Source: an uncultured Lentisphaeraceae bacterium
GTDB lineage: Bacteria; Verrucomicrobiota; Kiritimatiellia; RFP12; DVOR01
Direction: 5' to 3'
Assembly (NCBI GenBank): GCA_949289005.1
Contig: CASEMQ010000067.1
Span: 128,365-192,364 of the forward strand
Length of the DNA stretch: 64,000 bases
Numbering within the stretch: position 1 is the first letter of the stretch; every line of letters begins with the position of its first letter. Below, one piece after another: positions 1,058-60,790 of the stretch. The position numbers were made by a program, and so were the translations under genes. The notes under the pieces were generated by a model, which ran no database searches, was not told the origin of the DNA, and saw nothing but the letters and a program-made list of their open reading frames with translations.

Positions 1058-1882
1058 TTATTGCGCAGAAGCCGCACGATAGTAGTAGAATGCCTCGCCA
1101 GGCGCAATGGTGCGCTCCTCGTCCGTGACCGCGGCGTCTGCCGCCGACTTGTCACGCGGAATGACCGCATGACCGTTTTCGCGGTAAACCTCCCAAGTGT
1201 CGATGCCTTGCCCATCGTTGTAGTAGATGTAGGTCAGGTAGGACGACGAACCGGCCTGGACGCGAAGCAACTGGTCACCATTCTGAAGATCCGCAATATC
1301 GTAGATGTCCACGGGTTCGGAGGTGTTGTTGCCAAACATCAACATCCCATTCATGTCGCCGGAATACGCGACAATCTTTTCGGTTTGAGTGTGCTGTTCC
1401 CCACAGAAGATGGTTTCGGCGGGACGTTCCGACGTTTCGGTCGCAACAGCAATCCCGGGGATGGTGAACGTAACGCCCTTGGCATTCAACCACAGATAGG
1501 CCTTGTTCTGGACCAAATCCTCGCCCGTGGAGTCACCGTCATTCGGCGTCCACGCCAACGCGCCATCCGAGCCTTTCTTCAATCTCCACGAGGTGTTGGC
1601 CGCATACCCCTCCTCCTCGGAATTGCCTTGGATCGTGAGCGTGGTGGACTCGGAGAAGCCCTCCGTGGTGGGCGGGAGCACGTCGTTGAGGGGCGCACCC
1701 TTGGTCTGACCTTGGCCGGTGATGTCGAAGCCGCGCACGGGGAGACAGAGGAATTGGTAGCCCGTGTCGCTCTCGACGGGCGCCTTGCGGATGACCACGG
1801 CCGTGTTGTTGCCCGGGACGCCGGCGGCGATTGCCGCGCCCGTAATCGCCACACAGGCGGAAAAGACGAACAGACTCTTCAT
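1058..1882 (-). CDS. Secreted hypothetical protein of 274 aa
   Basis: Signal peptide MKSLFVFSACVAITGAAIAAG. It overlaps the upstream gene's stop (1879..1882) and is co-directional with the PEP-CTERM gene. Confidence 0.5.
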   Translation of the reverse strand: MKSLFVFSACVAITGAAIAAGVPGNNTAVVIRKAPVESDTGYQFLCLPVRGFDITGQGQTKGAPLNDVLPPTTEGFSESTTLTIQGNSEEEGYAANTSWRLKKGSDGALAWTPNDGDSTGEDLVQNKAYLWLNAKGVTFTIPGIAVATETSERPAETIFCGEQHTQTEKIVAYSGDMNGMLMFGNNTSEPVDIYDIADLQNGDQLLRVQAGSSSYLTYIYYNDGQGIDTWEVYRENGHAVIPRDKSAADAAVTDEERTIAPGEAFYYYRAASAQ

Positions 1883-2970
1883 CGTGTTTCTCCTTGCAGG
1901 TTTTTATCGCCCTTCAGGCGGTAAAAACGCGTTGTATCATTGAAAACCGGAATCGAGACGACACCCTCTTCTCTGATACGCCACTTAGTATAGCGCATCG
2001 CGTCGGAATTCGCAAGTCCTTTTTCTTGGAGGAAGGTATCGAAGGGTACCCACGTGCCGTCGAGCGCGTCCGACGTCTCCAGCGTGTAGGTCGTGATGTC
2101 GGGCGCTTGGGCCGGGGAGAGGGTAAGCGACAGCGTGGGCGTCCCGCCCCCCTGCGCGAGCGACATCCCCGAGATGGCCGGCTTGAGCGCGGCCTCGATG
2201 GCCGTAGGGTCGGTCAGCGTCTCACCGGCAACCACAATCGATGAAAGGGGCGCGGTCTCCTGAATCGCGGCAATGGTCGTCGCACCGCTATACCCACCAA
2301 AAGTCATCCCTTCTGGAAGATTCATCGCAATATTCTTCACACCCATCGGGGTTGCCTCGAAACGATGGCAAAAAGAAGCACCGTAGGCGGCAAGCGGCGT
2401 GGGCGCCTTCCCGTCGGTCACGCGCGCGGCAACCGTCGTCTCCCCGGTTTGAGGGTCGACGACCCGCGTATCGAACACCACGCAATAGAGGTAGGCATAA
2501 CGCATAGGGCGCGTACCGGCAGAGTTCGGCCAATAAAACGACATCAGTCGATATTCCCCATTGCCGCCACTCAAGGGTTGCCACGTTCCTGCAGGAAGTC
2601 CATCTTCGCCAACGACTTGGGTTGTCTCGTCGGCGTTGGCGGTGGCGAGCGTGGCCCACGTGAGCACATCGAGGTTGTCTTCCTTGGCCTGCAACGTGCC
2701 ATCGGCGGCAATAGCGAAGGGAACCTCCTCACCTGTAGCGGTCGTCGATAGGACAATCCCACTCTTGGGCACGGCGAAGACAAACCCAAATTGTTCCCCC
2801 GGGAGCGCGACCGATCCATCGGCGTACGTGAGCGGCGCGGAACCAATGGTCTGCTCCCCGGAAGTCACGCCACGCACGAACATGATTTGCGCATATGTCG
2901 ACAAGCCAATTTGCGCCCGGGCGAGGGGCGCGAGAGCGAGCAACGCGAAGAGAAAACAACTGTTTTTCAT
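1879..2970 (-). CDS. Secreted hypothetical protein of about 363 aa. The true start is internal to the listed 464-aa ORF.
   Basis: The internal Met begins MKNSCFLFALLALAPLARAQ, a classic signal peptide. The 100 aa upstream in the ORF are Pro/Arg-rich and run into repeat copy A, so I start the gene at 2970. Confidence 0.5.
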   Translation of the reverse strand: MKNSCFLFALLALAPLARAQIGLSTYAQIMFVRGVTSGEQTIGSAPLTYADGSVALPGEQFGFVFAVPKSGIVLSTTATGEEVPFAIAADGTLQAKEDNLDVLTWATLATANADETTQVVGEDGLPAGTWQPLSGGNGEYRLMSFYWPNSAGTRPMRYAYLYCVVFDTRVVDPQTGETTVAARVTDGKAPTPLAAYGASFCHRFEATPMGVKNIAMNLPEGMTFGGYSGATTIAAIQETAPLSSIVVAGETLTDPTAIEAALKPAISGMSLAQGGGTPTLSLTLSPAQAPDITTYTLETSDALDGTWVPFDTFLQEKGLANSDAMRYTKWRIREEGVVSIPVFNDTTRFYRLKGDKNLQGETR

Positions 2971-3091
2971 GGGGATAAGTGTAGCAAAAATGCGGGGGTG
3001 TTGCCAAGAACGGGCAAGCGAAACGGTGAACGGCGGACCGGGAGCGGCGCGTTTTTTCCGGGCGTCGACGGGGCTTTGCGCGGGTGCGGGA

Positions 3092-3282
3092 AACGGCCGT
3101 TTCGGCCTTCGGTTTGGGGTTGTCGATAACTTTCGCGAATCTGTCGAAAACCTGTTGAAAGCGGGAGCGGCCGGGAGGGGGTCAAAAAGGGGGAATTCAA
3201 TCAGGGAGCGGGGTCGTTTTTCGGGATGCGCCGTACCTCGGGTTGAGACACGGCGCATCCCGGGGTGAGGCACGGCGCGATT
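3092..3282 (+). repeat. Copy A of a roughly 170-190-bp interspersed intergenic repeat. It has a conserved 5' block TGTCGATAACTTTCGCGAATCTGTCGAAAACCTGTTGAAA and palindromic arms.
   Basis: Nucleotide-level near-identity with copies at 15706..15897 (-), 38598..38770 (-) and 60612..60790 (+). An internal inverted repeat, gggatgcgccgt ... acggcgcatccc, spans 3223..3261. Confidence 0.75.
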
Positions 3283-3394
3283 CCGTCGACCGCAGTCCGT
3301 GCACGATTCGCCTGCACGGCGCCGCGTACCGCAGGACGCACCCGGGCGGGCGGGGATTGCGCGGCGGGGCGGGGTGCGTTAGGATAGAGACACT

Positions 3395-4633
3395 ATGAAT
3401 CGCAGAAACTTTCTTTCCATGTTGGGGGTCACGGGCGCGGGGGTCGCGCTGGGACCCGGAGTCGTGACCGCCGCCGAGGTCAAGCAGCCTGCCGCCGAAA
3501 CCAGGCAACCCGCGACCGAGGGTTTTGCCGTGGCGCCCTATGCGCAGCTGACGGCGCCGGGCGTCGTCGAGATTCGCTGGCGCACGCGCATGCCCGCGAC
3601 CGCCACCGTTTTCTGGACACAGGAGCCCGCGCGGCCGCGCGAGGGCTGGGCGCGCGCCGTCCGCACGGAGGATGGGATGATCGCGGCCAACGAGGTGGCG
3701 CACCGCATCGTGCTGGAGGGGTTGGACCCGGCCAAGCCGCTTGCCTTCGAGGCCGTCTCCGAGCCCATCACGAGTTTCGGCGCCTACAGCATCCGGCGGG
3801 GCGCGGCCTTTGCGTCGGGCGTGCGGACGTTGCGGCCGACGCTCAACGCGGACGGCTCGCTCACCTTCGTGGTTTTCAACGACCTGCACGGGCAGGCGGC
3901 CAACCACCTGCCCCACTTCCTGGCGTTGCCGGAGGTGGCGGCGGCCAAGCCGGCCTTCGCGCTCTTCAATGGCGACTGCGCCGATGACTGCGGGTCGCAG
4001 GAGGGCGTCGAGAAACGCTTCCTCAACGCCTTGCCGCCCCTCACGGAGGCCGGGCTCCCGGCGCTTTACCTGCGCGGCAACCACGAGTATCGCGGGGCCA
4101 TGGCGCGGCGCATCCGCGCCAACCTCGCCCCGCTCGCCAACGGCAAGTTTTACGGCGCCTTCGACCTCGGCCCCGCGCGGTTCCTCATGCTGGACAGCGG
4201 CGAGGACAAACCCGACGACGCCAAGGTCTACGGCGGCCTGCTCGCCACCGACGCCTATTTGCGGGAGCAGGCCGACTGGCTCCGCCGCGAGGTAGCCTCG
4301 CCCGCCTGGAAGGCCGCCAAGCATCGCTTGGCCTTTTGGCACATCCCGCCGGTGAGCGACAATCCCGGCGAGGACAAGTGGTATGGCCCCACGCGGCTAC
4401 GCGAGCTCATCTCGCCCACGCTCAAGGACGCGGGGCTGGACGCCTTGGTCAGCGCCCACACCCACATGCACCGCTTGGTCAAGCCCACCGAGGCGCACCC
4501 CTATCCCATCCTGATCGGCGGCGGGCCAAACCCCAAGGGCGCCACCGTCATCCTCGCGCGCGTCTCCGCGCAGGGCGTCAGCCTCGTCGCCTACGGGCAC
4601 GACGGCAAGGCGCTCCACGAGGTCAAGGCCTAA
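3395..4633 (+). CDS. Tat-exported calcineurin-like metallophosphoesterase (purple-acid-phosphatase-like)
   Basis: MNRRNFLSMLGVTGAG is a twin-arginine signal. The motifs GDCADD and RGNHEY match a metallophosphatase active site. Confidence 0.75.
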   Translation: MNRRNFLSMLGVTGAGVALGPGVVTAAEVKQPAAETRQPATEGFAVAPYAQLTAPGVVEIRWRTRMPATATVFWTQEPARPREGWARAVRTEDGMIAANEVAHRIVLEGLDPAKPLAFEAVSEPITSFGAYSIRRGAAFASGVRTLRPTLNADGSLTFVVFNDLHGQAANHLPHFLALPEVAAAKPAFALFNGDCADDCGSQEGVEKRFLNALPPLTEAGLPALYLRGNHEYRGAMARRIRANLAPLANGKFYGAFDLGPARFLMLDSGEDKPDDAKVYGGLLATDAYLREQADWLRREVASPAWKAAKHRLAFWHIPPVSDNPGEDKWYGPTRLRELISPTLKDAGLDALVSAHTHMHRLVKPTEAHPYPILIGGGPNPKGATVILARVSAQGVSLVAYGHDGKALHEVKA

Positions 4634-4636
4634 GCC

Positions 4637-5854
4637 ATGAAGCGCCGCGCCTTCCTGGCCGCCCTTGGCGGCACCGTCGCCGCGCCCGCGCTCGTCGCCG
4701 CGCCCGCCCCCAAGGACGGGGCGCGGGGCAAGGGGACGGGCGCGGACTTCCTCCAGCCGCCCACCGCGCAACTCGTCGGCCCCGACGCGCTGGCCATCTG
4801 CTGGCGCACCGCGGGGGCCTCCGCCGGGAGCGTCCGCTGGACGCAGGACCCCGACCTGCCCGAAGAAAAGTGGGCCACCGCGCGGCGCGTCGTGGACGGG
4901 CTTGTCGCCTCCAACCGCCCCGACCACCTTGTCACCCTGCGCGGCGTGGACTTCACGAAGCCGATCCGCTTCCGCGTCGAGTCCGTCGCGACGACGATGG
5001 ATCCGTGGTGGACGCGCTTCGGCGAGACGACCCGTGGCGAGACCGTCGCCATCCCGCCGCTTGTCCGCGCGGGCGACGCGCTCACCTTCGCGGTGCTCAA
5101 CGACCTGCACGCCAACACCGCGCTCATCCCCGACCTGCTTGGGCTGGCGCCCATCGCCGAGGCCAACCCGGCCTTCGTGGCGCTCAACGGCGATTGCGCC
5201 GGCAACGTCAGCGGCCCCGAGCAGTTGCGCAAGGCGTTGCTCGGGCCGATGGCCGACCTCACCGCCCGCGGCGTGCCCATGCTCTTTCTGCGCGGCAACC
5301 ACGAGTATCGCGGCGTGATGGCGCGCCGCCTGCGCGAGGCCTTCGCCACCTTCACGCCCACCGACGCCTATTACGCCGACTTCGCCCTCGGCCCGTTGCG
5401 CCTGCTCCTGCTCGATGGCGGCGAGGACAAGGTCGACACCCACCGCGAATACTGCGGGCTCCTGGCGTGCGAGGATTACCTGGCGCAAGAGGGGCGTTGG
5501 CTCCGGGGCGCCGTGGCCACGCCGGAATGGAAGGCCGCCAAGCGCCGCCTCGCGCTCTGCCACATCCCGCCCGAATGCGGCAATGCGGACGAGGACGCCA
5601 AGCATGGCCCCGCGCGTCTGCGCCGTTTCCTCTCGCCGAGCCTCCGCGAGGCCGGGCTGGCCGCCCTGCTCTGCGCGCACACCCACCGCGAGGGTTTCCT
5701 CCCCGCCACGGAGGCGCGCCCCTACCCCATCCTCATCGGCGGCGGCCCCAAGGCCAAAAACGCCACCGTCACGCTCGTGCGGGCCACCCCCGAGCGCCTC
5801 GACATCACCGCCTACGCCCACGACGGCACGCGCCTGCACGCCATCAACACCTAA
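4637..5854 (+). CDS. Tat-exported metallophosphoesterase, a tandem paralog of the preceding gene
   Basis: MKRRAFLAALGG is a Tat signal. The same motifs appear (NGDCAGN, RGNHEYRG) and the two proteins align along their whole length. It starts 3 nt after the upstream stop. Confidence 0.75.
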   Translation: MKRRAFLAALGGTVAAPALVAAPAPKDGARGKGTGADFLQPPTAQLVGPDALAICWRTAGASAGSVRWTQDPDLPEEKWATARRVVDGLVASNRPDHLVTLRGVDFTKPIRFRVESVATTMDPWWTRFGETTRGETVAIPPLVRAGDALTFAVLNDLHANTALIPDLLGLAPIAEANPAFVALNGDCAGNVSGPEQLRKALLGPMADLTARGVPMLFLRGNHEYRGVMARRLREAFATFTPTDAYYADFALGPLRLLLLDGGEDKVDTHREYCGLLACEDYLAQEGRWLRGAVATPEWKAAKRRLALCHIPPECGNADEDAKHGPARLRRFLSPSLREAGLAALLCAHTHREGFLPATEARPYPILIGGGPKAKNATVTLVRATPERLDITAYAHDGTRLHAINT

Positions 5855-5896
5855 AAAGTGCTTGCTTTTTAACGCGATATTTGATATACTGCACGT

Positions 5897-7132
5897 ATGA
5901 AAGTCATTCATACGGCAGATTGGCATTTGGGCGCGAGGCTCCATGACCAGGAACGCGCGGACGAGCACCGGGCGTTCCTGGCTTTTTTGTTGGGGTTGAT
6001 CGAGACGGAACGGCCGGACGCGTTGTTGGTGTCGGGGGACATCTTCGACATGCGCCAGCCGGGCCTTTCGGCGCAACGGCAGTATTACGCGTTTCTGGCG
6101 GATCTGGCGGCGTTGCCCTACCGCCCGATGTGCGTCATCACGGCGGGCAACCACGACTCGGCCTACTTCCTGGCCTCGGCCAAGGAGGTGCTGCGCTTCC
6201 TGAACGTGCGGGTGGTCGCCAAGGCGGGGGAGGATGTGGCGGACGAGGTGGTGACGTTGCCCCGCGCGGACGGTTCGCCGGGACTGGCGATCGCGGCGAT
6301 CCCCTTCCTAAGCGAGGGCGAGCTGAACAACATCGCCCGCGCGGCCGGCGTGACGGAGGACGTGCCCGGCGGCCCCCGCCGCGCCGAGGTGGGCTGGCGG
6401 CGCCACGTGCGGGCCGTCATCGCGGCCGCGCGGGCCGCCGCGCCGGGCGTGCCCGTGGTGGCGATGGCGCATGGCACGCTGACGGGCGCGACGGTGAGCG
6501 ACGACCGTTCGGAGCGCGGGCGGCGCATCGGCGGCGTGGAGGCGTTGCCGGCGGATGCCTTCGCGGGGGCCGACTATGTGGCGTTGGGGCACCTGCACCT
6601 GCCGCAGGCCGTCGGCGCGGCGCACAACATCCGCTACGCGGGCGCGCCGCTGGCGATGAGTTTCGACGAGGCGGCGCGCGCCAAGTCCGTGACGGTGGTG
6701 GAGCCGGGCGAACGCGCGGGCGACCCGATCGCGGTGCGCGAGGTGCCGACGCCGTGCCCCGTGGCGTTGCGGCGCTTCACGGGCACGGCCGAGGACGTCC
6801 GCCGCGACCTCGCGGCCTTCGCGGCCACGGATGCGCCGGCCTATGTGGCGGCGCGCGTGACGGAGGGGGAGGGCGACCTGACGGCGCTCTGGCCGGCGCT
6901 GCAGGCGCTTTTCCCGCCGGAGAAGGCGGCGCGCCTCCTGCTGATGGAGGATGCCCGGGCGGCGGTCGCGCCGGGCACAGGGCTGGCCGCCGTGGCGGAG
7001 GGACAGCCGCTCGATGCGCTCGAGCCGCTGGAGGTGGCGCGTCTGCGCCTGGATGAGCTGCCCAACCTCTCGGACGAGGAGCGCGCGGCGTATCTGGATC
7101 TGGTGAAAGAGGCGATGGGGGACCTGGCATGA
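5897..7132 (+). CDS. sbcD: Exonuclease SbcCD subunit D, an Mre11-like nuclease
   Basis: MKVIHTADWHLG...GDIFD...AGNHD are phosphoesterase motifs I-III of Mre11/SbcD. Its stop overlaps the sbcC start in an ATGA junction. Confidence 0.85.
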   Translation: MKVIHTADWHLGARLHDQERADEHRAFLAFLLGLIETERPDALLVSGDIFDMRQPGLSAQRQYYAFLADLAALPYRPMCVITAGNHDSAYFLASAKEVLRFLNVRVVAKAGEDVADEVVTLPRADGSPGLAIAAIPFLSEGELNNIARAAGVTEDVPGGPRRAEVGWRRHVRAVIAAARAAAPGVPVVAMAHGTLTGATVSDDRSERGRRIGGVEALPADAFAGADYVALGHLHLPQAVGAAHNIRYAGAPLAMSFDEAARAKSVTVVEPGERAGDPIAVREVPTPCPVALRRFTGTAEDVRRDLAAFAATDAPAYVAARVTEGEGDLTALWPALQALFPPEKAARLLLMEDARAAVAPGTGLAAVAEGQPLDALEPLEVARLRLDELPNLSDEERAAYLDLVKEAMGDLA

Positions 7133-9855
7133 GGCTGTGCAACGTGGCTTTCGCGAACCTCAATTCCTTGGCCGGCGCCTGGCGGATCGACTTCGAGGCG
7201 CCGGCGTTCACCGACGGGCTCTTCCTTATCGGCGGCGAGACGGGCGCGGGCAAGACGACCATCCTGGACGCCGTGTCGCTGGCGCTCTATGGGCGCACGG
7301 CACGCCAAGGCACCGTCACGAAGTCCGGCAACGCGATTCTCTCCCGCGGGCATGGCTATGCCTGGGCCGAGGCGGAGTTCGAGACCGCCGAGGGACGTTT
7401 CCGTGCGCGTTGGGAACAGCACCGTGCGCGCAACAAACCGCAGGGCGAGCTGCAAAACGTCGTCGTCTCCCTCTTCGATTGCCGCGCGAACCGCGAACTC
7501 AGCGACCATCGCCGCAAGGATACGCGCCGCCTCATCGAGGCCAAGGTGGGGCTTTCGTTCGACCAGTTCCAGCGCACGATGATGCTCGCGCAGGGGCAAT
7601 TCGACCGCTTCCTCGCGGCCAACGATGCCGATCGCGCCGACATCCTCCGGCAGACCACCGGCACGGAGCGCTTCGCGCAGGTGGGCGAGGCCATCCACCA
7701 ACGCTACACCAACGCGCGAAACGAGGTGGAGCGTCTGAAAACCGAACTGGGGACGCTCACGGCGCTCACCCCGGAAGCGCGCCAAACCATCGCGGACGAA
7801 CTGGACGCCTATCGGGCGCAGGCCAACGCGGCGCGCGCGGCGTCTGAGACGCTGCAGGCGCGTTTGAAGACCTTTGACGAGGCCGCCAAGGCCGACTCCG
7901 ACGCCCAAGCCGACGTGACCCGGCGCGAGGCCGAGGCCAAGACCGCCGAGGCCGCACGCGAAAAGGCCGAAGCCAGACTGAAGGAAAAGGTGACCGGCCG
8001 GAAGGCCATCGCCAAGGTCGCGAAAGAAGCCGAGCCGAAAATCCGCGTGGCCCTGGACTTGGAAGGGCGGCTCTCGCAGGCGAAAACCAAGTGCGAGGCG
8101 CTCGCGAAACATCACGCGGCCACCGTGAAGACCCTCGCCGCCACCCGAACCGCCCTGACGCGGCGCACGCGGGAGATGGAGGAGGCCGAGGCCCTGGCCA
8201 ACGCGCTCCACGCCATGCTGGAAGGGCGCGAGGCGGCTTTCCCGGCATCCGCCGCGGACCTGCGCCGGGAGGCGGCGCGTTTGCGCGACTTGCGCACGGC
8301 GCTTGCCCGCGAGGCGGACACCCTGGGCACGCTCGGCGAACAGGCCACGCAGGCACGCGCGGAGGCGGAGGCGGCCGAAGCGTCCTTCGAGGCGCGGGAG
8401 CCAGACTTGCGCGCGGCCTTGGCGAACGCGGGGTTGGCAGTGGATCTGGCGGTGCGCGTGGCGAGCCTGGAGGAGCACCGCAAGGCGTTGGAGGCCGGCA
8501 AGCCGTGCCCGCTCTGCGGCGCGTTGGAGCACCCCTACGCCATGGGCTCGCATCCGGAAAAGTCGCAGGCCGAACAAGCGCGCGACGCCGCCAAGGAGGC
8601 GCTGGAACGCGCACAGGCCGCGCGCGACAAGGCCGATGCCGCCGCCCGGAAGGCCGAGAAGGCCCTGCGCGACGCGGAGGCCAAGGGGAAACGCCAACGC
8701 GAGGAATGTGCCGCGCTGGAGAAGGGATTCGGCGAGCAAGCCGCCGCCGCGAAGGCCAAAGCCAAGACCAACCGCGAGACGATTGCGGAGACGCGCCAAA
8801 CGCTGGACGAACAGGAAGCGCAGGCAACCGCGGAGGCGGGGTCGCTCGCGCAGGCCGAGGAAACGTGCGAGCGTTTGACGGCGGAACTGAAGGCGATCGG
8901 GCTGCCCATGCCGCCCGAAGCGCTCCGCGATGACCTGCGGCAACGTTGCGACGATGCAGCCAAGGATGTCGCCGCCGCGGAGACGACGTTGGCGGCCGCG
9001 CGGGCGAAGACGGACACGGCGCGGCAGGAGTTCGAGGCGGCCAAGGCGTTTGCCGAGACGGCCCGGGAGAGGCACGAAGCCGCGCGGGAAGCGCTCGGGG
9101 AGCCGCCCGAAACGTTGCGGGGGCGCGAGGCGGAACAGGCGCAAGCGATCCGCGACCTCGACCAGGAGATTGGCCAGCGGCTGGAGAAGTTGACGCGGGA
9201 CGACCAAGACCGCGACCGGCACGCACGGAAGCAAAAGGAACTCGACCGCGCGCGGGCGCTTTGCGACCGTTGGAAGAAACTCAACGACTGGCTCGGCGGC
9301 ATGGACGGCGACAAGTTCAACCGCTACGCGCAGGGCATCACCCTGCGGCAGTTGCTCCGCCATGCCAACCCGCACCTGCTCGCAATGTCGCAGGGGCGTT
9401 ACGCGATGGTGTGGTTGCCCGCCATCAACGCGGACAAAGAGACCACGGAAAAGGACGACGCCAAGGAGTCGCCCCCGCCGCCCTTGGTGCCCACGATCGT
9501 GGACAACGACCAGGCGCGGGCGCTCCGCCCGGTGAGCAATCTCTCGGGCGGCGAACGCTTCCAAGTCTCCTTGGCGCTGGCGTTGGGGCTCTCGGAGATG
9601 TCCGGCGCGAAGGTGCGGGTCGACACACTCTTCCTGGACGAAGGGTTTGGCACGCTCGACAGCAAGACGTTGGAGGCGGCCCTCGACACCTTGACGCGGA
9701 TTCAGCGCGACGGCAAACTCATCGGCATCATCTCGCACGTGGCGGCCTTGGGCGATCGTATCCGCGCGAAAATCCATGTGACCAAGCGCGGCGGCGGCCG
9801 CTCCATGATCGAAGGCCCCGGCGTGACGGCATTGGGGGACAGCGCCAAGACCTGA
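7129..9855 (+). CDS. sbcC: Exonuclease SbcCD subunit C, an SMC/Rad50-like ATPase
   Basis: Walker A GETGAGKTT, a long Ala/Glu/Arg-rich coiled coil, a CPLCG zinc hook, the ABC signature LSGGERFQVSLALALG, and Walker B LFLDEGFGTLD. Confidence 0.85.
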   Translation: MRLCNVAFANLNSLAGAWRIDFEAPAFTDGLFLIGGETGAGKTTILDAVSLALYGRTARQGTVTKSGNAILSRGHGYAWAEAEFETAEGRFRARWEQHRARNKPQGELQNVVVSLFDCRANRELSDHRRKDTRRLIEAKVGLSFDQFQRTMMLAQGQFDRFLAANDADRADILRQTTGTERFAQVGEAIHQRYTNARNEVERLKTELGTLTALTPEARQTIADELDAYRAQANAARAASETLQARLKTFDEAAKADSDAQADVTRREAEAKTAEAAREKAEARLKEKVTGRKAIAKVAKEAEPKIRVALDLEGRLSQAKTKCEALAKHHAATVKTLAATRTALTRRTREMEEAEALANALHAMLEGREAAFPASAADLRREAARLRDLRTALAREADTLGTLGEQATQARAEAEAAEASFEAREPDLRAALANAGLAVDLAVRVASLEEHRKALEAGKPCPLCGALEHPYAMGSHPEKSQAEQARDAAKEALERAQAARDKADAAARKAEKALRDAEAKGKRQREECAALEKGFGEQAAAAKAKAKTNRETIAETRQTLDEQEAQATAEAGSLAQAEETCERLTAELKAIGLPMPPEALRDDLRQRCDDAAKDVAAAETTLAAARAKTDTARQEFEAAKAFAETARERHEAAREALGEPPETLRGREAEQAQAIRDLDQEIGQRLEKLTRDDQDRDRHARKQKELDRARALCDRWKKLNDWLGGMDGDKFNRYAQGITLRQLLRHANPHLLAMSQGRYAMVWLPAINADKETTEKDDAKESPPPPLVPTIVDNDQARALRPVSNLSGGERFQVSLALALGLSEMSGAKVRVDTLFLDEGFGTLDSKTLEAALDTLTRIQRDGKLIGIISHVAALGDRIRAKIHVTKRGGGRSMIEGPGVTALGDSAKT

Positions 9856-15603: not shown

Positions 15604-15705
15604 AGACGGCGGCTTCCCTTCGGCCGGTCGCCGTGCCTTGCCGAGACATCGCCTGCCTTGTTGAAAAGTCGCACGGGATTGCCGATGACTTCCCGCCGGC
15701 CCCGT

Positions 15706-15897
15706 TTTGGGTTGCGGCGCGCCTCGGGACGCGAGACGGCGTGTCTCAACCCGAGGTACGGCGCATCCCGAAAAATGACCCCGCTCCCTGATTGAAAAAG
15801 CGGATTTGCACCTCCTCCGCCCCGCTCGCCTTCAACAGGTTTTCAACAGATTTGCAAAAGTTATCGACAGGCGTCTTCCCGGCCGGGAAGGCGCCCG
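15706..15897 (-). repeat. Copy B of the interspersed repeat in reverse orientation. It sits between the convergent esterase and hisA ends.
   Basis: ttcaacaggttttcaacagatttgcaaaagttatcgacagg is the reverse complement of the copy A block. An imperfect palindrome cgcctcgggacgcgagacggcgtgtctcaacccgaggtacggcg is present. Confidence 0.7.
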
Positions 15898-22450: not shown

Positions 22451-23059
22451 ATGAAACGCCTCCCCCTCGCCCTCCTGAGCCTCCTCCCCACCCTCGCCCT
22501 GGCACACACCGTCGCCGTGGTGGACATGGAAGCAGCACTGGCCAACCACCCCAACACCCCCAACGACCGCAAAACGCTGGAAACAACCCTCGCCGACTAC
22601 ACCAAGGAACGCGACACTCTCCGCGCCGACCTCGAACGCCGCATGGCCGACCTCGAAAAGCAACGCGCCGAGGCCCAAAACCCCATGCTTGCCCCCGCCA
22701 AGGCCGAGGAACTCCGCAAAACCCTCGAAGGCCGCCTTCGCGAACTCCAGGAGGCCGGCCGCCGCGCCGAGGCCCAGATGGCCCAACGCTCGCAGACCCT
22801 CTCGGAAATGGAGCGCAGCTTCATCAACCGCACCTCCAAGGAAATCGAGACCCACATCGCCGCCTACGCCAAGGAAAAGGCCATCGACGTGGTTCTCTAC
22901 AAGAACGCCACCCCCTACGTGAAGCCAGACCTCGACATCACCGACGCCATCATTACGCGTTGCGGCGGCACCCCGCCCGCGAAAGACGCCGCCAAGGACG
23001 GCGAAACCCTCGCCCCGCCCGCCAAGCCCAACTTCTCCCTCGCCCCCACCGCCAAATAA
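22451..23059 (+). CDS. skp: Periplasmic chaperone Skp/OmpH
   Basis: Signal peptide MKRLPLALLSLLPTLALA, then a coiled-coil Lys/Glu/Arg-rich body typical of OmpH. It sits immediately after bamA, the canonical bamA-skp arrangement. Confidence 0.65.
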   Translation: MKRLPLALLSLLPTLALAHTVAVVDMEAALANHPNTPNDRKTLETTLADYTKERDTLRADLERRMADLEKQRAEAQNPMLAPAKAEELRKTLEGRLRELQEAGRRAEAQMAQRSQTLSEMERSFINRTSKEIETHIAAYAKEKAIDVVLYKNATPYVKPDLDITDAIITRCGGTPPAKDAAKDGETLAPPAKPNFSLAPTAK

Positions 23060-23068
23060 GGAGCGCCA

Positions 23069-23497
23069 ATGAGCCACGAACTCGAAGAGGGTCTCTCCCT
23101 CAACCTCGACTTCTCCAAAATCGCCAAAGTCGCCGCCAACATCCACGAGGACAAGGACAACGTCATCCCCGTGGCCGTCCAGGACATCGACACCAAAGAG
23201 GTCATCCTCATCGCCTACACCAACCGCCAGGCCATGGAACTGACCTTCAAGACCCGCACGCTCACCCTCTGGTCCACCTCCCGCAACGTCCTCTGGGAAA
23301 AAGGCAAGACCTCCGGGGAATCCTTCGAGGTGCTCGAGGCACGCGTCAATTGCGAGCAGAACTCCCTCGTCTACTTCGTTCGCCCCCGCCGCGGCGCCAT
23401 CTGCCACACCAAAAACAAGGCCGGCCAACCGCGCAACTGCTACTACCGCGCCATCAACCTGGACGATGGCGTCACCCTCACCAACCTCGATCCGTGA
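23069..23497 (+). CDS. hisI: Phosphoribosyl-AMP cyclohydrolase HisI (monofunctional)
   Basis: LDFSK...IPVAVQD...NCEQNSLVYFV...CHTKN are PRA-CH motifs, including the Cys metal ligands. Confidence 0.8.
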   Translation: MSHELEEGLSLNLDFSKIAKVAANIHEDKDNVIPVAVQDIDTKEVILIAYTNRQAMELTFKTRTLTLWSTSRNVLWEKGKTSGESFEVLEARVNCEQNSLVYFVRPRRGAICHTKNKAGQPRNCYYRAINLDDGVTLTNLDP

Positions 23498-23529
23498 GCG
23501 CGACCGGGAAGCGTGCCGGGCAGGTCGCG

Positions 23530-25344
23530 ATGCCCACCGCGTCCGTTCGCCTGAACACCGGGGACTGGGCCCCCGCGCGCCGTCTCCTCGGCGCCGAGGG
23601 GCTCGCCGTCATCCTCCCCTGCCACAACCTCGCCGCGACCGTCGAGGCCAACCTCGCGCGCGTGGCCGATCTCCTGCACGCACACGGCCTCCCCTTCCAG
23701 CTCATCCCCGTGGACGATGGCAGCGACGACGGCACGGCCGAGGCCATCCGCCGCGCCGCCGCCCGCCACCCCGATCTCATCCACCCCGCCTTCCTCCCCA
23801 CCAACCAGGGCAAGGGCGCCGCGCTCCTCGCCGGACTCCCCCACGTGACGTGCGGCTGGGTGTTGCTTCTGGACGGCGACCTTGACCTCGACCCCTCCGC
23901 CCTCCCCGCCTTCTGCGATGTCGCCGAGGCCACGCATGCGGACGCCATCCTGGGGAACAAGCGCCACCCCGCCTCGCAAGTGCGCTATCCCCTGCGCCGC
24001 CGTCTCTTCTCCGCCCTTTACCACGCCCTCTGCCACGCACTGCTTCGCCTAAGCGTTTCCGACACGCAGAGCGGCATGAAACTCATCCGCGCCCAAGCCC
24101 TCCGCTACGCCGCCGACCGCCTCCTCGTCAAACGGTTTGCCTTCGACCTCGAGCTCCTCGCCGTCATCCAAGGCGGCGGCTTCACCCTCGCCGAGGCACC
24201 CGTGCGCGTGGACTTTGGCCTCCGCTGGGGCTGCCTCTCGCCGGGCACGCTCTGGCGCACGCTGGTCGACACCCTGGCCATCGTCTACCGCGCCCGCGCC
24301 CTGCACTACTACGCCGGCCTCACCCCCCTGCCCCCCGCGCCCGACCCCGCGCACGGCCCGCGCTTCTCCGTCATCGTCGCCTGCCCCGGCGACAGCGTCG
24401 TCCTCCGCCGCCTCATCGCCGCCCTCGACGCGCAGACCTACCGCAACTTCGAGGTCCTCTTCCTCCCCGACCGCCTCCTCGTCCGCCCCGAGGTCCGCTT
24501 CCGCTTCCGCATCCTCGCCACCGGCGGCGTCCGACCCGCCCGCAAACGCAACCAAGGCGCGCTCGTGGCCGATGGCGACATCCTCGCCTTCATCGACGAC
24601 GATGCCTACCCGCGCCCGGACTGGCTCGCCAACGCCGCCGCGCGCTTCGCCGCCGACCCCGCCATCGACGCCCTCGGCGGCCCCGGCCTCACCCCGCCCG
24701 AAGACCCGCCCGCCGCCCAACTCTCCGGCGCCATCCTCGCCTCCCCCCTCGTCTCCGGCAACTTCCGCCACCGCTACTTCATCCAAGGCGCCCTCCGCCG
24801 CGTCGAGGACTTCCCCAGTTGCAACCTCTTCGTCCGCAAGGCCGCCTTCGATGCCATCCGCGGCTTCCGCGAAGACTTCTGGCCCGGCGAGGACACCCTC
24901 CTCTGCGCCGACCTCCAGCTCGCCGGCCGCACCCTGTGGTACGACCCCCGCGTCGTCGTCTACCACCACCGCCGCCCCGTCTTCGGCCCCCACCTCCGCC
25001 AAATCGGCCGCTATGCCCTCCACCGCGGCTACTTCGCCCGCCGCGTTGGCCTCAACTCCCGCCGTCTCTCCTACCTCCTCCCCACGCTCTTCCTCCTCGG
25101 CCTCCTCCTCGGCGCCCCGCTCGCCTGCCTCTCCCCTTGGCTCGCCGTCCCCTACCTCGCCATCGTCTCGCTCTACCTCCTCGTCACCCTCGGCGACGCC
25201 CTCCTCGAAGCCCCCACACCGCGCCAAATGCCCGCCTACTGGGCCGGCGTCATCCTCACGCACCTCTGGTACGGCGCACGTTTCCTTCATGGTCTCCTCG
25301 CCGCCAAAATGCCCAACAAAGTCCTCCCCTTCGACCACCGCTGA
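23530..25344 (+). CDS. Membrane glycosyltransferase with two tandem GT2 (family 2) domains
   Basis: Two GT-A modules are visible. The first reads ILPCHNLAATV...VDDGSDDGT...LLDGD. The second reads FSVIVACPGD...FIDDDAYPRPDWL...GEDTLL. The C-terminus is hydrophobic. Confidence 0.7.
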   Translation: MPTASVRLNTGDWAPARRLLGAEGLAVILPCHNLAATVEANLARVADLLHAHGLPFQLIPVDDGSDDGTAEAIRRAAARHPDLIHPAFLPTNQGKGAALLAGLPHVTCGWVLLLDGDLDLDPSALPAFCDVAEATHADAILGNKRHPASQVRYPLRRRLFSALYHALCHALLRLSVSDTQSGMKLIRAQALRYAADRLLVKRFAFDLELLAVIQGGGFTLAEAPVRVDFGLRWGCLSPGTLWRTLVDTLAIVYRARALHYYAGLTPLPPAPDPAHGPRFSVIVACPGDSVVLRRLIAALDAQTYRNFEVLFLPDRLLVRPEVRFRFRILATGGVRPARKRNQGALVADGDILAFIDDDAYPRPDWLANAAARFAADPAIDALGGPGLTPPEDPPAAQLSGAILASPLVSGNFRHRYFIQGALRRVEDFPSCNLFVRKAAFDAIRGFREDFWPGEDTLLCADLQLAGRTLWYDPRVVVYHHRRPVFGPHLRQIGRYALHRGYFARRVGLNSRRLSYLLPTLFLLGLLLGAPLACLSPWLAVPYLAIVSLYLLVTLGDALLEAPTPRQMPAYWAGVILTHLWYGARFLHGLLAAKMPNKVLPFDHR

Positions 25345-35822: not shown

Positions 35823-38372
35823 TCACGCGGTGAGGGGATTGACGTTCTCGGGCGGGCGCTTGGAGGGCTTGACAGCCTCGGTGCGGACGACCTTGCCATC
35901 CTTGATGAGCGTGCGCCATTTGAGGTGGATGGAAGAGGTGCCGATGCGCAGCTCGAAGGGTTCGTCGGGGAGCACCCATGACTGATCCTCAAGGACAATC
36001 TTGAGGTGGTCGAGCGGCACATCGAGCGCGACGGTCTTGGTCTCGCCGGGCTTCAGGTGGACACGCTTGAAGCCGCGCAACATCTGGTCGAACCAATAGA
36101 TGGGCGTCTTGGTGTAGGAGACGTAGAGCTGCACCACCTCGTCGCCGGCGACCTTGCCGGTGTTGGTGACGGGGATGTGGACGCGCCAACCGGCGGGCAC
36201 GGGCGCGGGGTCGCGGAAGCACAGGCGATCCCACAACGTCGCCTCGCCGGGCGCGGTAAGGGGCTCGATTGTGGGCTTGCCGATGGCAAAGGTGGTGTAG
36301 GAAAGCCCAAAACCGAAGGGCCAAAGCGCGCCGGCGTTGTAGGAGCCGTTCTTGAGTTCGGGCTCGTAGTTGGACTTCGGCTTCGCAGGGAAGTTGAAGG
36401 GGATCTGCCCAGCGGATTTAAGCCAAGTGCCGTTGGTCTTGCCACCGGGATTGTAGCGCCCCAGGAGCGCCTCGGCCACGGCCGTGCCGCCGTGGCCGCA
36501 AAGCAACCCGCAGGAAAGAATGGCCGGGGTGTTGCGGGCCGCCCAGTTGATGCTCGGCGGGCGGCCATGCATCAGCACGAGCACGGTGGGCGTGCCGGTG
36601 GCCTGGACGGCCTCGAGCAGTTCCTCTTGCCGGCCGGGGAGGTTGAGGCTCGTGCGCGTGTGGCTCTCGCCGGAAGTGCGGCCATTGTCGCCCAACACCA
36701 CAATCGCGACGTCGGCGGACTTGGCAAGGGCGACGGCCTTGGCCTGCTCGTCGCGCTCTTTCTTGGTGATGGGCACGGGCACCAACTCGCTGTCAGGCCA
36801 GCCGGGATTGACGTGGTCGCATCCCTTGGCGTAGACGACCTCCGCGCCCGTCCCGGCGAGCGCCCGCTCAAGCCCCTTGCGCACCGTGACAAAGTCGTAG
36901 TCCGTGGGCCCGTAACGGTCGGGCCGGTAACACCCGGTGTCGGCGTTGGGGCCGATGACGGCGACGCGCTTGAGCTTTTTCGCGTCGAGCGGCAGGAGGT
37001 CGCCCTCGTTCTTGAGGAGCACGAGCGCCTCGCGGGCGACCTGCAACGCCACACGCGCGGCCTCCTCCGTGCCGACAAGCGCGTTGGCGGATTTGGGGTC
37101 GGCCACGTAGGGCCGGTCAAACATGCCGCGCATAAACTTCACGCGCAGCACGTCGCGCACCATCGCGTCCACATCCTCCGGCGCCAGCGAGCCATCGTCC
37201 AGCGAGGCATTGATGGCGCGCGCCACGGCATCGGGCGGGGAGAAGGTCGTCCAGACGTTGAGCCCGGCCTTGATGCGCAGATTGTGCGCCTCTTTCTGGT
37301 CGACGGCCATGCGGTGCAACGTGGCGAGCCGCTCGACCGCGTGACTGTCGGAGACGACATAGCCCTCAAAGCCAAGCTCGCCGCGCAAGCGCTCCTTGAG
37401 CAAATGCGCGCTCGCGGCCACCGGCATGCCATTGACATCGTTGTAGGCGCACATCACGCCGAGCGGATGCGCCTCGGTGAAGACTCGCCGGAAGGGATAG
37501 AAATGAATCGCCTCGAAGGTCTGCGCCGTGATGTGCGGATCCGTCCGCGAATCATAGCCGCGCGCACCCTTGTTCTCGCCGTAGCCCACGTAATGTTTGG
37601 GGCTGGAGATGGCACCACCTTCTTGAATGCCCAGGCACAACGCCTTGCCGATCTCGGCCACCAGGAACGGATCCTCGGCGATGGTCCCCTCCCAACGACC
37701 CCAACGTTGGTCACGCGCCACGTCCAAAATCGGCGCATAGACATTCGTGTAGCCCACCGCCCGCGCCTCACGCCCCGTGACGCGCCCCATCTCGCGGATC
37801 AGCTCCGGGTTCCACGTCATCCCCTGCGAATGGGGCATGGGGAAAGAGGTGCCGTGCCGCAACGACGCGCCGTTGATCCCTTCGTTCGTGAAGTCCACGG
37901 GAATGCCCAGCCGCGTCTGCTCGATGAAAAACCGCTGCGTGTTGTTCACGTAATGCGCGTTCCGCTCGGGCGTGTCGCTCACCTCCCTGTCGCCGCGGTG
38001 GCGCCACCCCGCGCCCTGCTCGTCGATGTTCGCCACGCCATCCTTCCACACGCGCTTGCTCTTCCACGCCTCCGTGGGATACTTGTCCTTCAACACCGCG
38101 CGGTAACCATAGAGCGTGCAGAGCTGCATCACCTTCTCGGCCTGGGTCATCCGCCCCAGCAAATCTTCCACCCGCGCTTCCACCCCCGCCGAAGGATCCT
38201 CGTAGACATCCATCTCCCCGTTCTTGTTCAGGTCGATCCAGCCCTCATGGTAAATCCCCGGCATCGCCTCAAACGGATAAGGATAGGGATTGCCCTTCAA
38301 CGCCGTGTCGGCTCCCGCGGCCAAAACCACGGAACCCAACAAGCCCGACAACAGAACCAATTCAGTCTTCAT
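35823..38372 (-). CDS. bglX: GH3 beta-glucosidase (BglX-like) with a C-terminal extension and a signal peptide. The true start is internal at 38372.
   Basis: Signal peptide MKTELVLLSGLLGSVVLAAGA. GH3 motifs KHYVGYG and GFEGYVVSDS, the latter carrying the catalytic Asp. Confidence 0.85.
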   Translation of the reverse strand: MKTELVLLSGLLGSVVLAAGADTALKGNPYPYPFEAMPGIYHEGWIDLNKNGEMDVYEDPSAGVEARVEDLLGRMTQAEKVMQLCTLYGYRAVLKDKYPTEAWKSKRVWKDGVANIDEQGAGWRHRGDREVSDTPERNAHYVNNTQRFFIEQTRLGIPVDFTNEGINGASLRHGTSFPMPHSQGMTWNPELIREMGRVTGREARAVGYTNVYAPILDVARDQRWGRWEGTIAEDPFLVAEIGKALCLGIQEGGAISSPKHYVGYGENKGARGYDSRTDPHITAQTFEAIHFYPFRRVFTEAHPLGVMCAYNDVNGMPVAASAHLLKERLRGELGFEGYVVSDSHAVERLATLHRMAVDQKEAHNLRIKAGLNVWTTFSPPDAVARAINASLDDGSLAPEDVDAMVRDVLRVKFMRGMFDRPYVADPKSANALVGTEEAARVALQVAREALVLLKNEGDLLPLDAKKLKRVAVIGPNADTGCYRPDRYGPTDYDFVTVRKGLERALAGTGAEVVYAKGCDHVNPGWPDSELVPVPITKKERDEQAKAVALAKSADVAIVVLGDNGRTSGESHTRTSLNLPGRQEELLEAVQATGTPTVLVLMHGRPPSINWAARNTPAILSCGLLCGHGGTAVAEALLGRYNPGGKTNGTWLKSAGQIPFNFPAKPKSNYEPELKNGSYNAGALWPFGFGLSYTTFAIGKPTIEPLTAPGEATLWDRLCFRDPAPVPAGWRVHIPVTNTGKVAGDEVVQLYVSYTKTPIYWFDQMLRGFKRVHLKPGETKTVALDVPLDHLKIVLEDQSWVLPDEPFELRIGTSSIHLKWRTLIKDGKVVRTEAVKPSKRPPENVNPLTA

Positions 38373-38597
38373 GCTCCAATCATACACCATTCCTCCGCCC
38401 CCCGCCACACAAATCCCTTCCCCCACCCGTCCCTGCGTCCCCCGCAACGCACCCGGGAGAGGCGGTCATCCTTCACCGCCATTCGCACCGATGACACCTC
38501 CGGCGCCCGGGAAAACGGAGACGAATCCGGGTTTTTGCGAAGTTCGCGGCGCAACGGCTCCGTGAAACGTTCCGCACCCTTTAGGTTGGGATGTCTC

Positions 38598-38770
38598 CGG
38601 TCGGCGAAGATGCGGCGTACCTCGGGGTGAGAGACGGCGTGTCTCACCCCGAGGTACGCCGCATCCCGGAAAACGACCCCGCTCCCTGATTGAAAGGGCG
38701 GTTCTGAGGCTCCTCCGGCCTCACCCGCCTTCAACAGGTTTTCAACAGATTTTGCAAAGTTATCGACAGG
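38598..38770 (-). repeat. Copy C of the interspersed repeat in reverse orientation. It contains a perfect 24-bp-stem palindrome at 38609..38665.
   Basis: gatgcggcgtacctcggggtgaga [gacggcgtg] tctcaccccgaggtacgccgcatc. The conserved block ttcaacaggttttcaacagattttgcaaagttatcgacagg is at 38730..38770. Confidence 0.8.
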
Positions 38771-38904
38771 GATGACGAACGGTTCCAGTGGTATGCCGGG
38801 AACGGTGGGACGACGGGCACGTGAAGGGCCCCGGCGGACGCGGCGGAAAGGCATAACCCAACAAGAAAATGACACTGCGCCTCCTGTGACTCTTGGGCGA
38901 AGCC

Positions 38905-53995: not shown

Positions 53996-54057
53996 GCCCC
54001 GCATTATAACAAATGTGCTCCGGCACGGCGCCCGCCGCGATCGGCAACCCCTCGCGG

Positions 54058-54792
54058 TCACCAAGCGCGACGAACGGAACGAAAGGTACGCCCCAGCACC
54101 TCCAATGCGTCGGCGCGAAGCGCCTGGTTGGGCAGGCGGAGCGCGCGTCGGTCGGCCTCGGTGAGCGCGTCTTCGCGAAAACGCAGGAAGATTTCCGGGT
54201 CTGGGCCGTAGACCTTGTCGCCCACCACGGGAAAGCCAAGCGAATGGAGGCTGGCGCGGATTTGATGCGTGCGCCCGGTCACCAACTCGGCTTGCAGCAG
54301 CGAGGTGCCCGCCCACGGCCCCTCGCCCAAGCGCTCGAACCATGTCGCCGCGCCCCGATCCGGCGCGAGCGGCGGCAAGTCGGGCGTGAGCGCGGCCTCC
54401 TCCAGGCGGCGCATGGAATAGACCGGCGGCGCGTTGACCCGGCAGACCCGCCCCGACGCGCAAAGCCGTCCCTCCGGGAACCGCCCCTCCACCACCACCA
54501 GATAACGCTTGCGTTTGGGTGCCTTGGCCAAACGCGCCGCCATCCGCGGATCCTTCGCCACCAACACCACCCCGCACGTCTCCCGATCCAGTCGCGAAAT
54601 CAGATGGATCGTGTTCCCCGGGCGATAGAGGCGGAGCAAGCGATCGAGCGTATGCAGGCGATAACTCCCGCTGGCGTGGACCGGCAAATCGGCCGGCTTG
54701 TCCACCACCAACATCCGCGCATCCTCGTAAAGCCAGCGGATGTCCGTATTGACGGGCGGGTCAAGGCGCACGCAACGCCTCGCTTGGGTCAA
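54058..54792 (-). CDS. RluA-family pseudouridine synthase
   Basis: Catalytic motif HLISRLDRETCGVVLVAK and LVTGRTHQIRASL. Confidence 0.8.
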   Translation of the reverse strand: MTQARRCVRLDPPVNTDIRWLYEDARMLVVDKPADLPVHASGSYRLHTLDRLLRLYRPGNTIHLISRLDRETCGVVLVAKDPRMAARLAKAPKRKRYLVVVEGRFPEGRLCASGRVCRVNAPPVYSMRRLEEAALTPDLPPLAPDRGAATWFERLGEGPWAGTSLLQAELVTGRTHQIRASLHSLGFPVVGDKVYGPDPEIFLRFREDALTEADRRALRLPNQALRADALEVLGRTFRSVRRAW

Positions 54793-60611: not shown

Positions 60612-60790
60612 GCGGCAAAAACGATGCCAGCCTTGCCGCGACTGTCGATAACTTTGCGAAATCTGTTGAAAACCTGTTGAATCCGGGCGGAGCCCGGGAT
60701 GCCTCAGACCCCGCCTTTCAATCTATACGCGAGGTCATTCTCCGAGACACGGCGCATCCCGGGTTGAGACACGCCGCATCCCACCCCGGG
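60612..60790 (+). repeat. Copy D of the interspersed repeat in forward orientation. It lies in a divergent region between the PEP-CTERM gene and the parE-like gene.
   Basis: Conserved block gtcgataactttgcgaaatctgttgaaaacctgttgaa. The tandem direct repeat gagacacggcgcatccc / gagacacgccgcatccc is present. Confidence 0.7.

Follow-up and report, generated by a model that had tools for sequence, protein, structure and literature searches.

What is the short sequence that recurs between genes in a 64-kb stretch of DNA from an uncultured Lentisphaeraceae bacterium of the Kiritimatiellia, and does it act as DNA or as RNA? The stretch, called the window below, comprises 64,000 nt of contig CASEMQ010000067.1 (positions 128,365 to 192,364, forward strand). 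An initial annotation, made from the letters alone, had described four near-identical intergenic elements and offered two interpretations, a mobile repeat resembling repetitive extragenic palindromes (REP) or miniature inverted-repeat transposable elements (MITE), or a multi-copy structured small RNA (sRNA). The reading we favor, with a probability of roughly 0.5, is a species-restricted interspersed DNA repeat whose selected module would bind the replication initiator DnaA. Our functional claims draw on four paralogs and on sequence inference only.

Four homologous copies lie between genes

The window holds four homologous, non-coding copies of the element, each about 175 nt long. The corrected core pattern TGTCGATAACTTTNNNNAATCTGTYGAAAACCTGTTGAA has just four matches, at 3121-3159 (+), 15831-15869 (-), 38730-38768 (-) and 60643-60681 (+), and none in 100 shuffles, which bears out a four-copy family in both orientations. 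These four loci also made up the longest pairs, inverted and direct, in a repeat search. The consensus as originally written matches nothing, even with three mismatches, because one base is missing between TTT and AA. In pairwise blastn with 200-nt flanks, all pairs begin to align no more than 2 nt from (C)TGTCGA, so the 5′ edge of the element is sharp. Past this edge homology extends for 155-158 nt, and for 175 nt in the A-C pair. The following coordinates combine pattern matches with the blastn limits and were confirmed by reading back the sequence.

Copy A, whole element: 3121-3295, plus strand
Copy B, whole element: 15874-15696, minus strand
Copy C, whole element: 38768-38594, minus strand
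Copy D, whole element: 60641-60818, plus strand

The ends given earlier were roughly right, but the starts of A, B and D carried about 29 nt of non-homologous upstream DNA.

Gene context was drawn from Pfam-supported genes, with 39 window proteins scanned. Copy A occupies the divergent intergenic region between a 363-aa gene (start 2970, minus strand) and a metallophosphoesterase gene with a twin-arginine translocation (TAT) signal (start 3395). Copy B sits between the converging ends of hisA (stop 15939) and an Abhydrolase_3 (alpha/beta-hydrolase) gene (stop 15603). Copy C separates two same-strand genes, 3′ of the intrinsic terminator of the HU gene and about 220 nt upstream of the start codon of a GH3 glycosidase. 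Copy D is again divergent, between a PEP-CTERM protein gene and a 607-aa type IIA topoisomerase B-subunit (ParE/GyrB-like) gene. With A and D divergent, C on the promoter side and B between converging gene ends, the element is not a promoter-only motif, as had been claimed. The claim that it does not code for protein also stands: the element is modular, and gene callers placed no open reading frame (ORF) over the copies in about 25 assemblies.

A phased array of DnaA-box-like sites is the most conserved module

Each copy consists of four modules. An AT-rich block of 39 nt comes first and is followed by a GC-rich spacer (about 38 nt), a linker of 33 nt, and finally the REP-like palindromes. Mean paralog identity is 0.91 for the box array in the block, 0.58 for the spacer, 0.81 for the linker and 0.68 for the palindromes. 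The block is among the most AT-rich 40-mers of a window that is 61-71% GC. It contains three same-strand 9-mers, TGTCGATAA, TGTTGAAAA and TGTTGAAGG, at offsets 0, +21 and +32. Across the copies these read TGTCGATAA, TGT(T/C)GAAAA and TGTTGAA(GG/AG/TC), with reverse complements TTATCGACA, TTTTCRACA and nnTTCAACA. Their positions, from a 9-mer search and read-back, are listed together with one extra box outside the elements.

Box array, copy A, plus strand: TGTCGATAA at 3121-3129, TGTCGAAAA at 3142-3150, TGTTGAAAG at 3153-3161
Box array, copy B, minus strand: TGTCGATAA at 15869-15861, TGTTGAAAA at 15848-15840, TGTTGAAGG at 15837-15829
Box array, copy C, minus strand: TGTCGATAA at 38768-38760, TGTTGAAAA at 38747-38739, TGTTGAAGG at 38736-38728
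Box array, copy D, plus strand: TGTCGATAA at 60643-60651, TGTTGAAAA at 60664-60672, TGTTGAATC at 60675-60683
Lone extra box TTTTCAACA: 15659-15667, minus strand, in opposite orientation to the array and 29 nt past the 3′ end of copy B

Over 27 box positions in four copies there is a single substitution, and the differences within the block are concentrated in the 4-5 nt between boxes. Invariant boxes with variable gaps are the pattern expected of protein-binding sites. The sequence TTWTCRACA occurs nine times in 64 kb, eight times inside the four elements and once 29 nt from copy B, compared with about 0.3 occurrences estimated by chance from base composition; the lone box TTTTCAACA is the sole such 9-mer outside the elements. 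The strict consensus TTWTNCACA is absent from the window. In oriC, same-orientation boxes about 2 bp apart (11-bp phasing) support head-to-tail DnaA oligomers (PMC6868365), and the boxes of the element, all on one strand at the offsets given above, have this head-to-tail arrangement. The initial annotation recognized no known family in the repeat. That is true of the family as a whole but not of its most conserved module, which consists of three phased DnaA-box-type 9-mers.

Just beyond the 3′ end of copy B there is also a second box-like sequence, AAGTCATCGGCAA (15679-15691, read on the minus strand), a 10/13 match to the reverse complement of the first 13 nt of the element. The order of TTTTCAACA and AAGTCATCGGCAA differs from that of a simple inverted copy of the block. 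The two could be the remnant of a second element or a pre-existing box pair.

The paired box recurs upstream of replication genes in other phyla

The 19-mer CTGTYGAAAACCTGTTGAA, the core of the AT-rich block, comprises two TGTTGAAAA boxes 11 bp apart and was used to scan a public genome collection. As a search for the element the scan was too loose: the matches listed came from other phyla, and the full 39-nt block was in no locus among them. Most of the loci among those matches have TGTTGAAAA clustered together with canonical TGTGGAAAA or TGTGGATAA. At least 21 loci from at least 7 phyla carry CTGTYGAAAACCTGTTGAA no more than a few hundred bases upstream of dnaN, recF or both, as linked by tblastn with the DnaN and RecF of one locus; the groups are Ruminococcus, Vampirovibrio, Bdellovibrionales, WOR-3, Uhrbacteria, Spirochaetales and Bipolaricaulota. 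By Pfam, the 19-mer also lies 74 bp upstream of dnaA in a Nitrospirae metagenome-assembled genome and 75 bp upstream of dnaB in another genome. Example loci, from the set L001-L093, are L061:7863, L007:906, L053:6150 and L085:3395. Since dnaN falls in an 8-kb window by chance in only about 0.3% of cases, the link between CTGTYGAAAACCTGTTGAA and the upstream regions of replication genes is strong. This association with dnaN, dnaA, dnaB and recF across phyla points to DnaA as the protein that would read the boxes, and the variant box TTTTCAACA seems to be widely used at origins.

A relaxed three-box pattern run against IMG/VR returned ten contigs, all with arrays of CTGTGGAAAAC (the canonical TTTTCCACA box) or CTGTTGAAAAC. 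These ten low-GC viral contigs (L109-L118) carry the boxes densely, with about ten in 150 nt in L112. Judged by sequence, the arrays resemble phage or phage-plasmid origins of the DnaA-dependent or iteron type.

Spacer, linker and REP-like palindromes

In copies B and C, the spacer forms a hairpin enclosed by the stem CCTGTTGAA/TTCAATCAGG. The linker follows the pattern CAATCAGGGAGCGGGGTC(G/A)TTTT(T/C)CGGGATGCG, with identities of 0.94-0.97 among A, B and C against 0.64-0.67 relative to D. The motif described earlier in this region, TTTCAATC...GGGAGCGGGGTC(G/A)TTTT(T/C)CGGGATGCG, is therefore 94-97% conserved in three copies but diverged in the fourth. With up to three mismatches allowed, the window contains six units of the GAGACACGGCGCATCCC type, some direct and some inverted, all of them intergenic and inside the four copies; they form long hairpins, in line with the long palindromes described initially. 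In B and C, an inverted and a direct unit stand on either side of a small central hairpin. Copy A has one inverted and two direct units, and in copy D the first palindrome arm is the exact reverse complement of that arm in A, B and C. Linker positions are from the module alignment, and the units of copy D are from a unit search and alignments.

Linker, copy A: 3198-3230, plus strand, 33 nt, CAATCAGGGAGCGGGGTCGTTTTTCGGGATGCG
Linker equivalent, copy B: about 15794-15762, minus strand
Linker equivalent, copy C: about 38692-38660, minus strand (diverged in copy D)
REP-like units, copy A: 3223-3283, plus strand, inverted unit 3223-3239, direct unit 3245-3261, and a degenerate third unit
Near-perfect palindrome in the REP-like module, copy C: 38609-38665, minus strand, 28-nt arms, 96% complementary, 1 nt between the arms
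Two direct REP-like units, copy D: 60744-60760 and 60766-60782, plus strand

The evidence favors a DNA repeat over an RNA

Were the family a set of sRNA genes or another structured RNA, the AT-rich block would serve as promoter or upstream activating sequence and the hairpins as RNA body and terminator. Qrr and RsmX/Y/Z are examples of sRNA families that are multi-copy and have conserved regulator sites upstream. The hairpins are long and stable (copy C, -92 kcal/mol, z = -7.4; copy B, z = -2.4), in A, B and C a variable hairpin sits inside the stem CCUGUUGAA/UUCAAUCAGG, and the hairpin and T-run of copy B score as terminator-like. However, the terminator-like site is found only in B, and a sigma-70-like promoter is found in none of the four copies. 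Such promoters are recognizable at the HU gene (TTGCAA-N17-CATAAT) and at the GH3, parE-like and phosphoesterase genes, with -10-like hexamers just upstream of the start codons of the last three. These three promoters sit between the element and the genes, and thus the copies are not in those 5′ untranslated regions; for orientation relative to transcription, copy C is the only informative context of the four. The Rfam scan and the covariation test suggested by the initial annotation both speak against an RNA: there was no match at the gathering threshold, none of 13 matches at E<=10 overlaps a copy, and the RNAalifold covariation term of +1.92 (six sequences) amounts to no support. Double changes affect 4 of 46 stem pairs and follow paralog groups, and stem mismatches include both G-U and A-C in counts without strand bias. 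In addition, the spacer hairpin (P2) is absent in A, the 3′ half of the P1 stem is broken in D, and the palindromes are symmetric, as expected of DNA-level repeats. An RNA family is therefore improbable, and the sequence evidence favors a DNA repeat. Of the two initial interpretations the REP/MITE-like one survives, for an element that is non-coding, modular and lineage-restricted, breaks short-read assemblies, and has direct repeats at three of four copies.

Other promoter readings of the block were compared by eye, and no sigma-54, Bacteroidetes-type or reverse-strand reading fits all four copies.

Copies B, C and D are fixed in the strains seen, and the family looks restricted to one species

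Strain loci were found by exact-protein look-ups in assemblies from ENA and Logan, all belonging to a single study series; for the protein beside copy A, no identical sequence was on record. In every strain assembly seen for them, copies B, C and D occupy unchanged sites, with about 98% identity and almost invariant boxes. Copy B recurs in strains L094 and L095. Ten further strain assemblies contain copy C, whose middle box is TGTTGAAAG in three strains, and ten contain copy D, whose box array is invariant. Logan contigs L096-L098 end inside copy B, and one more, L129, ends inside copy A. Breakage of short-read contigs inside the element is the behavior of a multi-copy repeat. No further copy was found in the 10 kb past each window end, giving 4 copies per ~84 kb.

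In about 65 kb from several sister species (HisA 87-88%, ParE 86-91% identical) we found no copy, box or REP unit, an absence with a probability of about 0.05 at the density of the window. Relatives at 81-84% ParE identity have no element around parE, and nhmmer with a four-copy profile detected no diverged copies in about 190 kb of relatives' DNA. JGI metagenomes gave no match with either the box-array or the linker pattern, and IMG/VR gave none with the linker motif. Given its absence from the sister species, the relatives and the JGI metagenomes, the family looks restricted to one species-level lineage. The closest named relatives of the neighboring ParE/GyrB-like protein are Kiritimatiellia.

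In two assemblies, copy C (L140:3600-3700, L142:3600-3720) shows many scattered substitutions and insertions of 45 nt and 25 nt exactly over the palindrome, with clean flanks. These changes are probably assembly or consensus errors at the hairpin rather than real variation.

Candidate marks of insertion

Direct repeats stand on both sides of three copies, each pair a candidate target-site duplication, and the span between partners is constant at 175-179 nt.

Direct repeat CGGGAAG, copy B: 15689-15695 with partner 15875-15881, minus strand
Direct repeat CATCCC, copy C: 38588-38593 with partner 38769-38774, minus strand
Direct repeat CCGCG, copy D: 60819-60823 with partner 60636-60640, plus strand

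In a control of 20,000 random windows, a repeat of at least 5 nt appeared in 7.2%, so that the chance of at least three in four is 0.0014; the 3′ position was chosen post hoc, and after a ~12-fold correction p is about 0.02. At the level of sequence, mobility is suggested.

In A, B and D, a short hairpin rich in GC precedes the 5′ edge by 0-13 nt (3095-3107, 15870-15896 and 60612-60637), and that of copy B has a 13-bp stem directly abutting the element. These hairpins may be chance in GC-rich intergenic DNA or may reflect an insertion preference beside hairpins or terminators.

A repeat with a putative DnaA-binding module

Under the explanation we favor, the repeat would have spread into the intergenic DNA of one Kiritimatiellia lineage and would act, if at all, as DNA rather than RNA. 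Its 5′ module is a head-to-tail array of three DnaA-box-like 9-mers, spaced two and one helical turns apart, which probably binds DnaA. The 3′ modules are REP-like GC-rich palindromes that rearrange through local inversion and the gain or loss of units. DnaA might be a host factor during copying of the element, or the array might be a dispersed, titrating DnaA-binding site. The outside and mosaic ends of Tn5 each carry a DnaA site (PMC3347997), and so a mobile-element terminus with such a site has a precedent. It is conceivable, although we consider it unlikely, that the scattered arrays form a distributed DnaA reservoir or titration system built by amplification of the element, analogous to Escherichia coli datA or the Bacillus subtilis clusters, or that copying of the element depends on DnaA and the replication machinery.

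Several observations weigh against this explanation. Compared with the consensus TTATnCACA (PMC5742627), from which the preference of the host may differ, TTATCGACA and TTTTCAACA match at 8/9 positions and CCTTCAACA at 6/9, and all three 9-mers differ at position 6, where they have G or A instead of C. In E. coli, the TnCACA part of the box is read by the DnaA recognition helix (PMC5742627), and position 6 falls there; because the boxes deviate within this part, we can only infer DnaA binding. The third box has no 5′ TT, and the 11-nt unit CTGTYGAWAAC also resembles a direct repeat of the OmpR/PhoB type. As for mobility, copy A has no flanking repeat, and the repeats of the other three are unequal in length (5, 6 and 7 nt). 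Terminal inverted repeats are unsupported: local alignment of the reverse complement of the 5′ 16 nt against the 3′ region gave p = 0.51 (A), 0.012 (B), 0.92 (C) and 0.47 (D), and an ungapped search found none. Neither the window nor about 20 kb beyond it contains a gene for a transposase or a REP-associated tyrosine transposase (RAYT). The initial annotation had proposed a check for polymorphic insertions, which turned up none: no strain seen has an empty site, B, C and D being fixed throughout. Comparison with the sister species recovered no empty site either, with both synteny and intergenic sequence diverged.

Alternative explanations

The resemblance to OmpR/PhoB-type repeats raises the possibility that the block is the site of another transcription factor, either a response regulator of this family or IHF, as in IHF-binding bacterial interspersed mosaic elements (BIME), and that the repeat distributes this site upstream of genes. 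Pho boxes are two or more CTGTCAT-N4 direct repeats with 11-bp phasing and A/T spacers that replace the -35 about 10 bp upstream of the -10. The element has 11-nt units (CTGTCGATAAC, CTGTTGAAAAC and CTGTTGAAgg) at 21- and 11-nt spacing, three copies lie 60-220 nt upstream of promoters, and copy A is upstream of two TAT-signal metallophosphoesterase genes, plausible phosphate-scavenging enzymes. However, the 30 nt past the last repeat are GC-rich, without a -10-like hexamer in any copy, and copy B has no downstream gene to regulate, so both the promoter geometry and copy B contradict the Pho-box model. Nor do the ParE-like topoisomerase, the GH3 glycosidase and the 3′ end of hisA resemble a phosphate regulon. 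The sequence AAnCTGTTGAA loosely resembles the reversed IHF consensus (A/T)ATCAAnnnnTT(A/G) (PMC5742627), but the core ATCAA is unmatched. Finally, the recurrence of the same 19-mer upstream of dnaN, dnaA, dnaB and recF across phyla points to DnaA, and we regard a different transcription factor as doubtful.

The copies might instead be chromosomal DnaA-control sites selected by the host among its replication genes, analogous to E. coli datA or DARS or to the B. subtilis clusters, and not selfish or mobile. In B. subtilis, six DnaA-box clusters outside oriC restrain initiation (PMC3245932). Each copy has three phased DnaA-box-like sites, the window is rich in replication genes, and B, C and D are fixed in all strains seen with boxes that hardly vary, all of which would suit such sites. 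Yet homology over 155-175 nt, palindromes included, indicates that the copies arose by whole-element duplication and not by convergence on boxes, and the element is absent from the sister species. The DARS core requires boxes I and II in opposite orientation (PMC6868365), unlike the three same-orientation boxes here. Three copies have flanking direct repeats, and 4 copies per 84 kb together with the assembly breaks suggest far more copies than a handful of control loci. On balance, host-selected control sites are not a likely explanation. That the family is an artefact, or a trivially duplicated promoter region without element identity, is the least probable alternative by a wide measure. The garbled palindrome of copy C in assemblies L140 and L142 does show that the region is hard to assemble. 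Against this, the contexts of the four copies are unrelated, both strands are represented, and the limits of homology are sharp. More than 10 assemblies, independent of one another and made from different samples, contain these copies again, and no copy contains a promoter-like site. The pattern matches and the strain recurrence have effectively refuted it already.

Two further readings were rejected. A replication fork trap (Ter-like) does not suit orientations of + - - + within 58 kb. An oriC does not suit copies 12-22 kb apart with no adjoining extended AT-rich unwinding element, and GC skew in the window follows gene strand only.

Genes of the window

By Pfam, the replication genes of the window are dnaB, dnaG, dnaE, parE-like, HU and sbcCD; dnaA, dnaN, transposase and RAYT genes are absent among the 39 proteins, and neither dnaN nor recF occurs in any of the Kiritimatiellia loci examined. 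The dnaE ORF is 1441 aa from its first start codon and 1247 aa as called in public assemblies. Downstream of copy A, 3395-9855 (+) is operon-like. It begins with two paralogous TAT-signal calcineurin-like phosphoesterase genes (3395-4633 and 4637-5854), which share stretches 73-86% identical about 1220 nt apart, and continues with SbcD-like (5897-7132) and SbcC-like (7129-9855) genes. A family-2 glycosyltransferase gene (22960-25344) contains weak direct repeats with a 354-nt period at 23747-24483 (+), with a 29-nt seed present three times and 76-83% identity, which suggests internal duplication. Long shadow ORFs at 36006-38630 (+), 1879-3273 (-) and 50252-54577 (-) lie opposite or upstream of real genes and overlap repeat copies. 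Such ORFs are typical of high-GC DNA; one example, 874 aa and antisense to the GH3 gene, has no Pfam hit.

Comparison with known systems

By type, the nearest known systems are REP/BIME, BOX and MITE repeats. Like the REP/BIME sequences of Proteobacteria, the element is extragenic and rich in GC, its imperfect palindromes are built of units of about 17 nt that face either way and are separated by short spacers, the mosaic arrangement varies between copies, and the sequence is lineage-specific. Typical REP/BIME have palindromic units of about 20-40 nt that often alternate in orientation, more than 100 genome copies, a RAYT gene flanked by REPs and a GTAG-like 5′ tetranucleotide, and some BIMEs have a host-protein (IHF) site between REPs. 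The element, in contrast, is a composite whose make-up is fixed over about 175 nt: it has a conserved linker, its AT-rich 5′ module is unique, and its host-protein module resembles DnaA boxes, not an IHF site. Its palindromic units never stand alone in the window and contain no GTAG. No RAYT is encoded among the 39 window proteins or the genes of the flanking 20 kb, although one may lie elsewhere in the genome.

The pneumococcal BOX element (boxA-boxB(n)-boxC) is similar in being modular and intergenic, with a conserved 5′ module, a variable middle and variable 3′ units, no coding capacity, no known mobilizing enzyme and high predicted secondary structure. There is no sequence similarity, however, host phylum and GC content differ, and BOX elements are not known to carry phased DnaA-box-like sites. 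With MITEs the element shares a length of 100-200 nt, an intergenic multi-copy distribution, candidate target-site duplications at three of four copies, and room for host-factor sites, as in Correia elements, which carry an IHF site. It differs from them in having no significant terminal inverted repeats and in flanking repeats that are unequal and missing at A. By their defining features, therefore, the element is not a member of REP/BIME, BOX or MITE.

With E. coli datA and DARS1/2 and the B. subtilis DnaA-box clusters it has in common a cluster of three or more DnaA-box-like 9-mers in non-coding DNA away from oriC. Each of those loci, however, is a unique sequence outside any repeat family, an IHF site is required at datA, and the boxes of the element deviate at position 6. 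As at the ends of Tn5/IS50, where DnaA is a host factor (PMC3347997), the element starts with CTGTC and carries DnaA-box-like sites. Tn5 ends, however, have one box in a 19-bp inverted repeat with 9-bp duplications, whereas the three boxes of the element are confined to one end, with no inverted counterpart at the other and no transposase gene in view. A full-text search of the literature found no report of a dispersed repeat built around phased DnaA-type boxes. We conclude that this is a genuine repeat family, not described before, with an unusual DnaA-box-like module.

Implications

Interspersed intergenic repeats are common, but few have a recognizable host-protein module. Tandem TGTTGAAAA boxes with 11-bp phasing recur upstream of dnaN, dnaA and dnaB across phyla, and this may aid origin prediction. 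The element also breaks metagenome assemblies of its source lineage. Should DnaA not bind, the element would still be a clean species-specific marker, usable for strain typing. If DnaA does bind, tens to hundreds of three-box arrays would alter the amount of free initiator, and the element would provide a naturally occurring example of replication control linked to a repeat family, in the poorly studied Kiritimatiellota.

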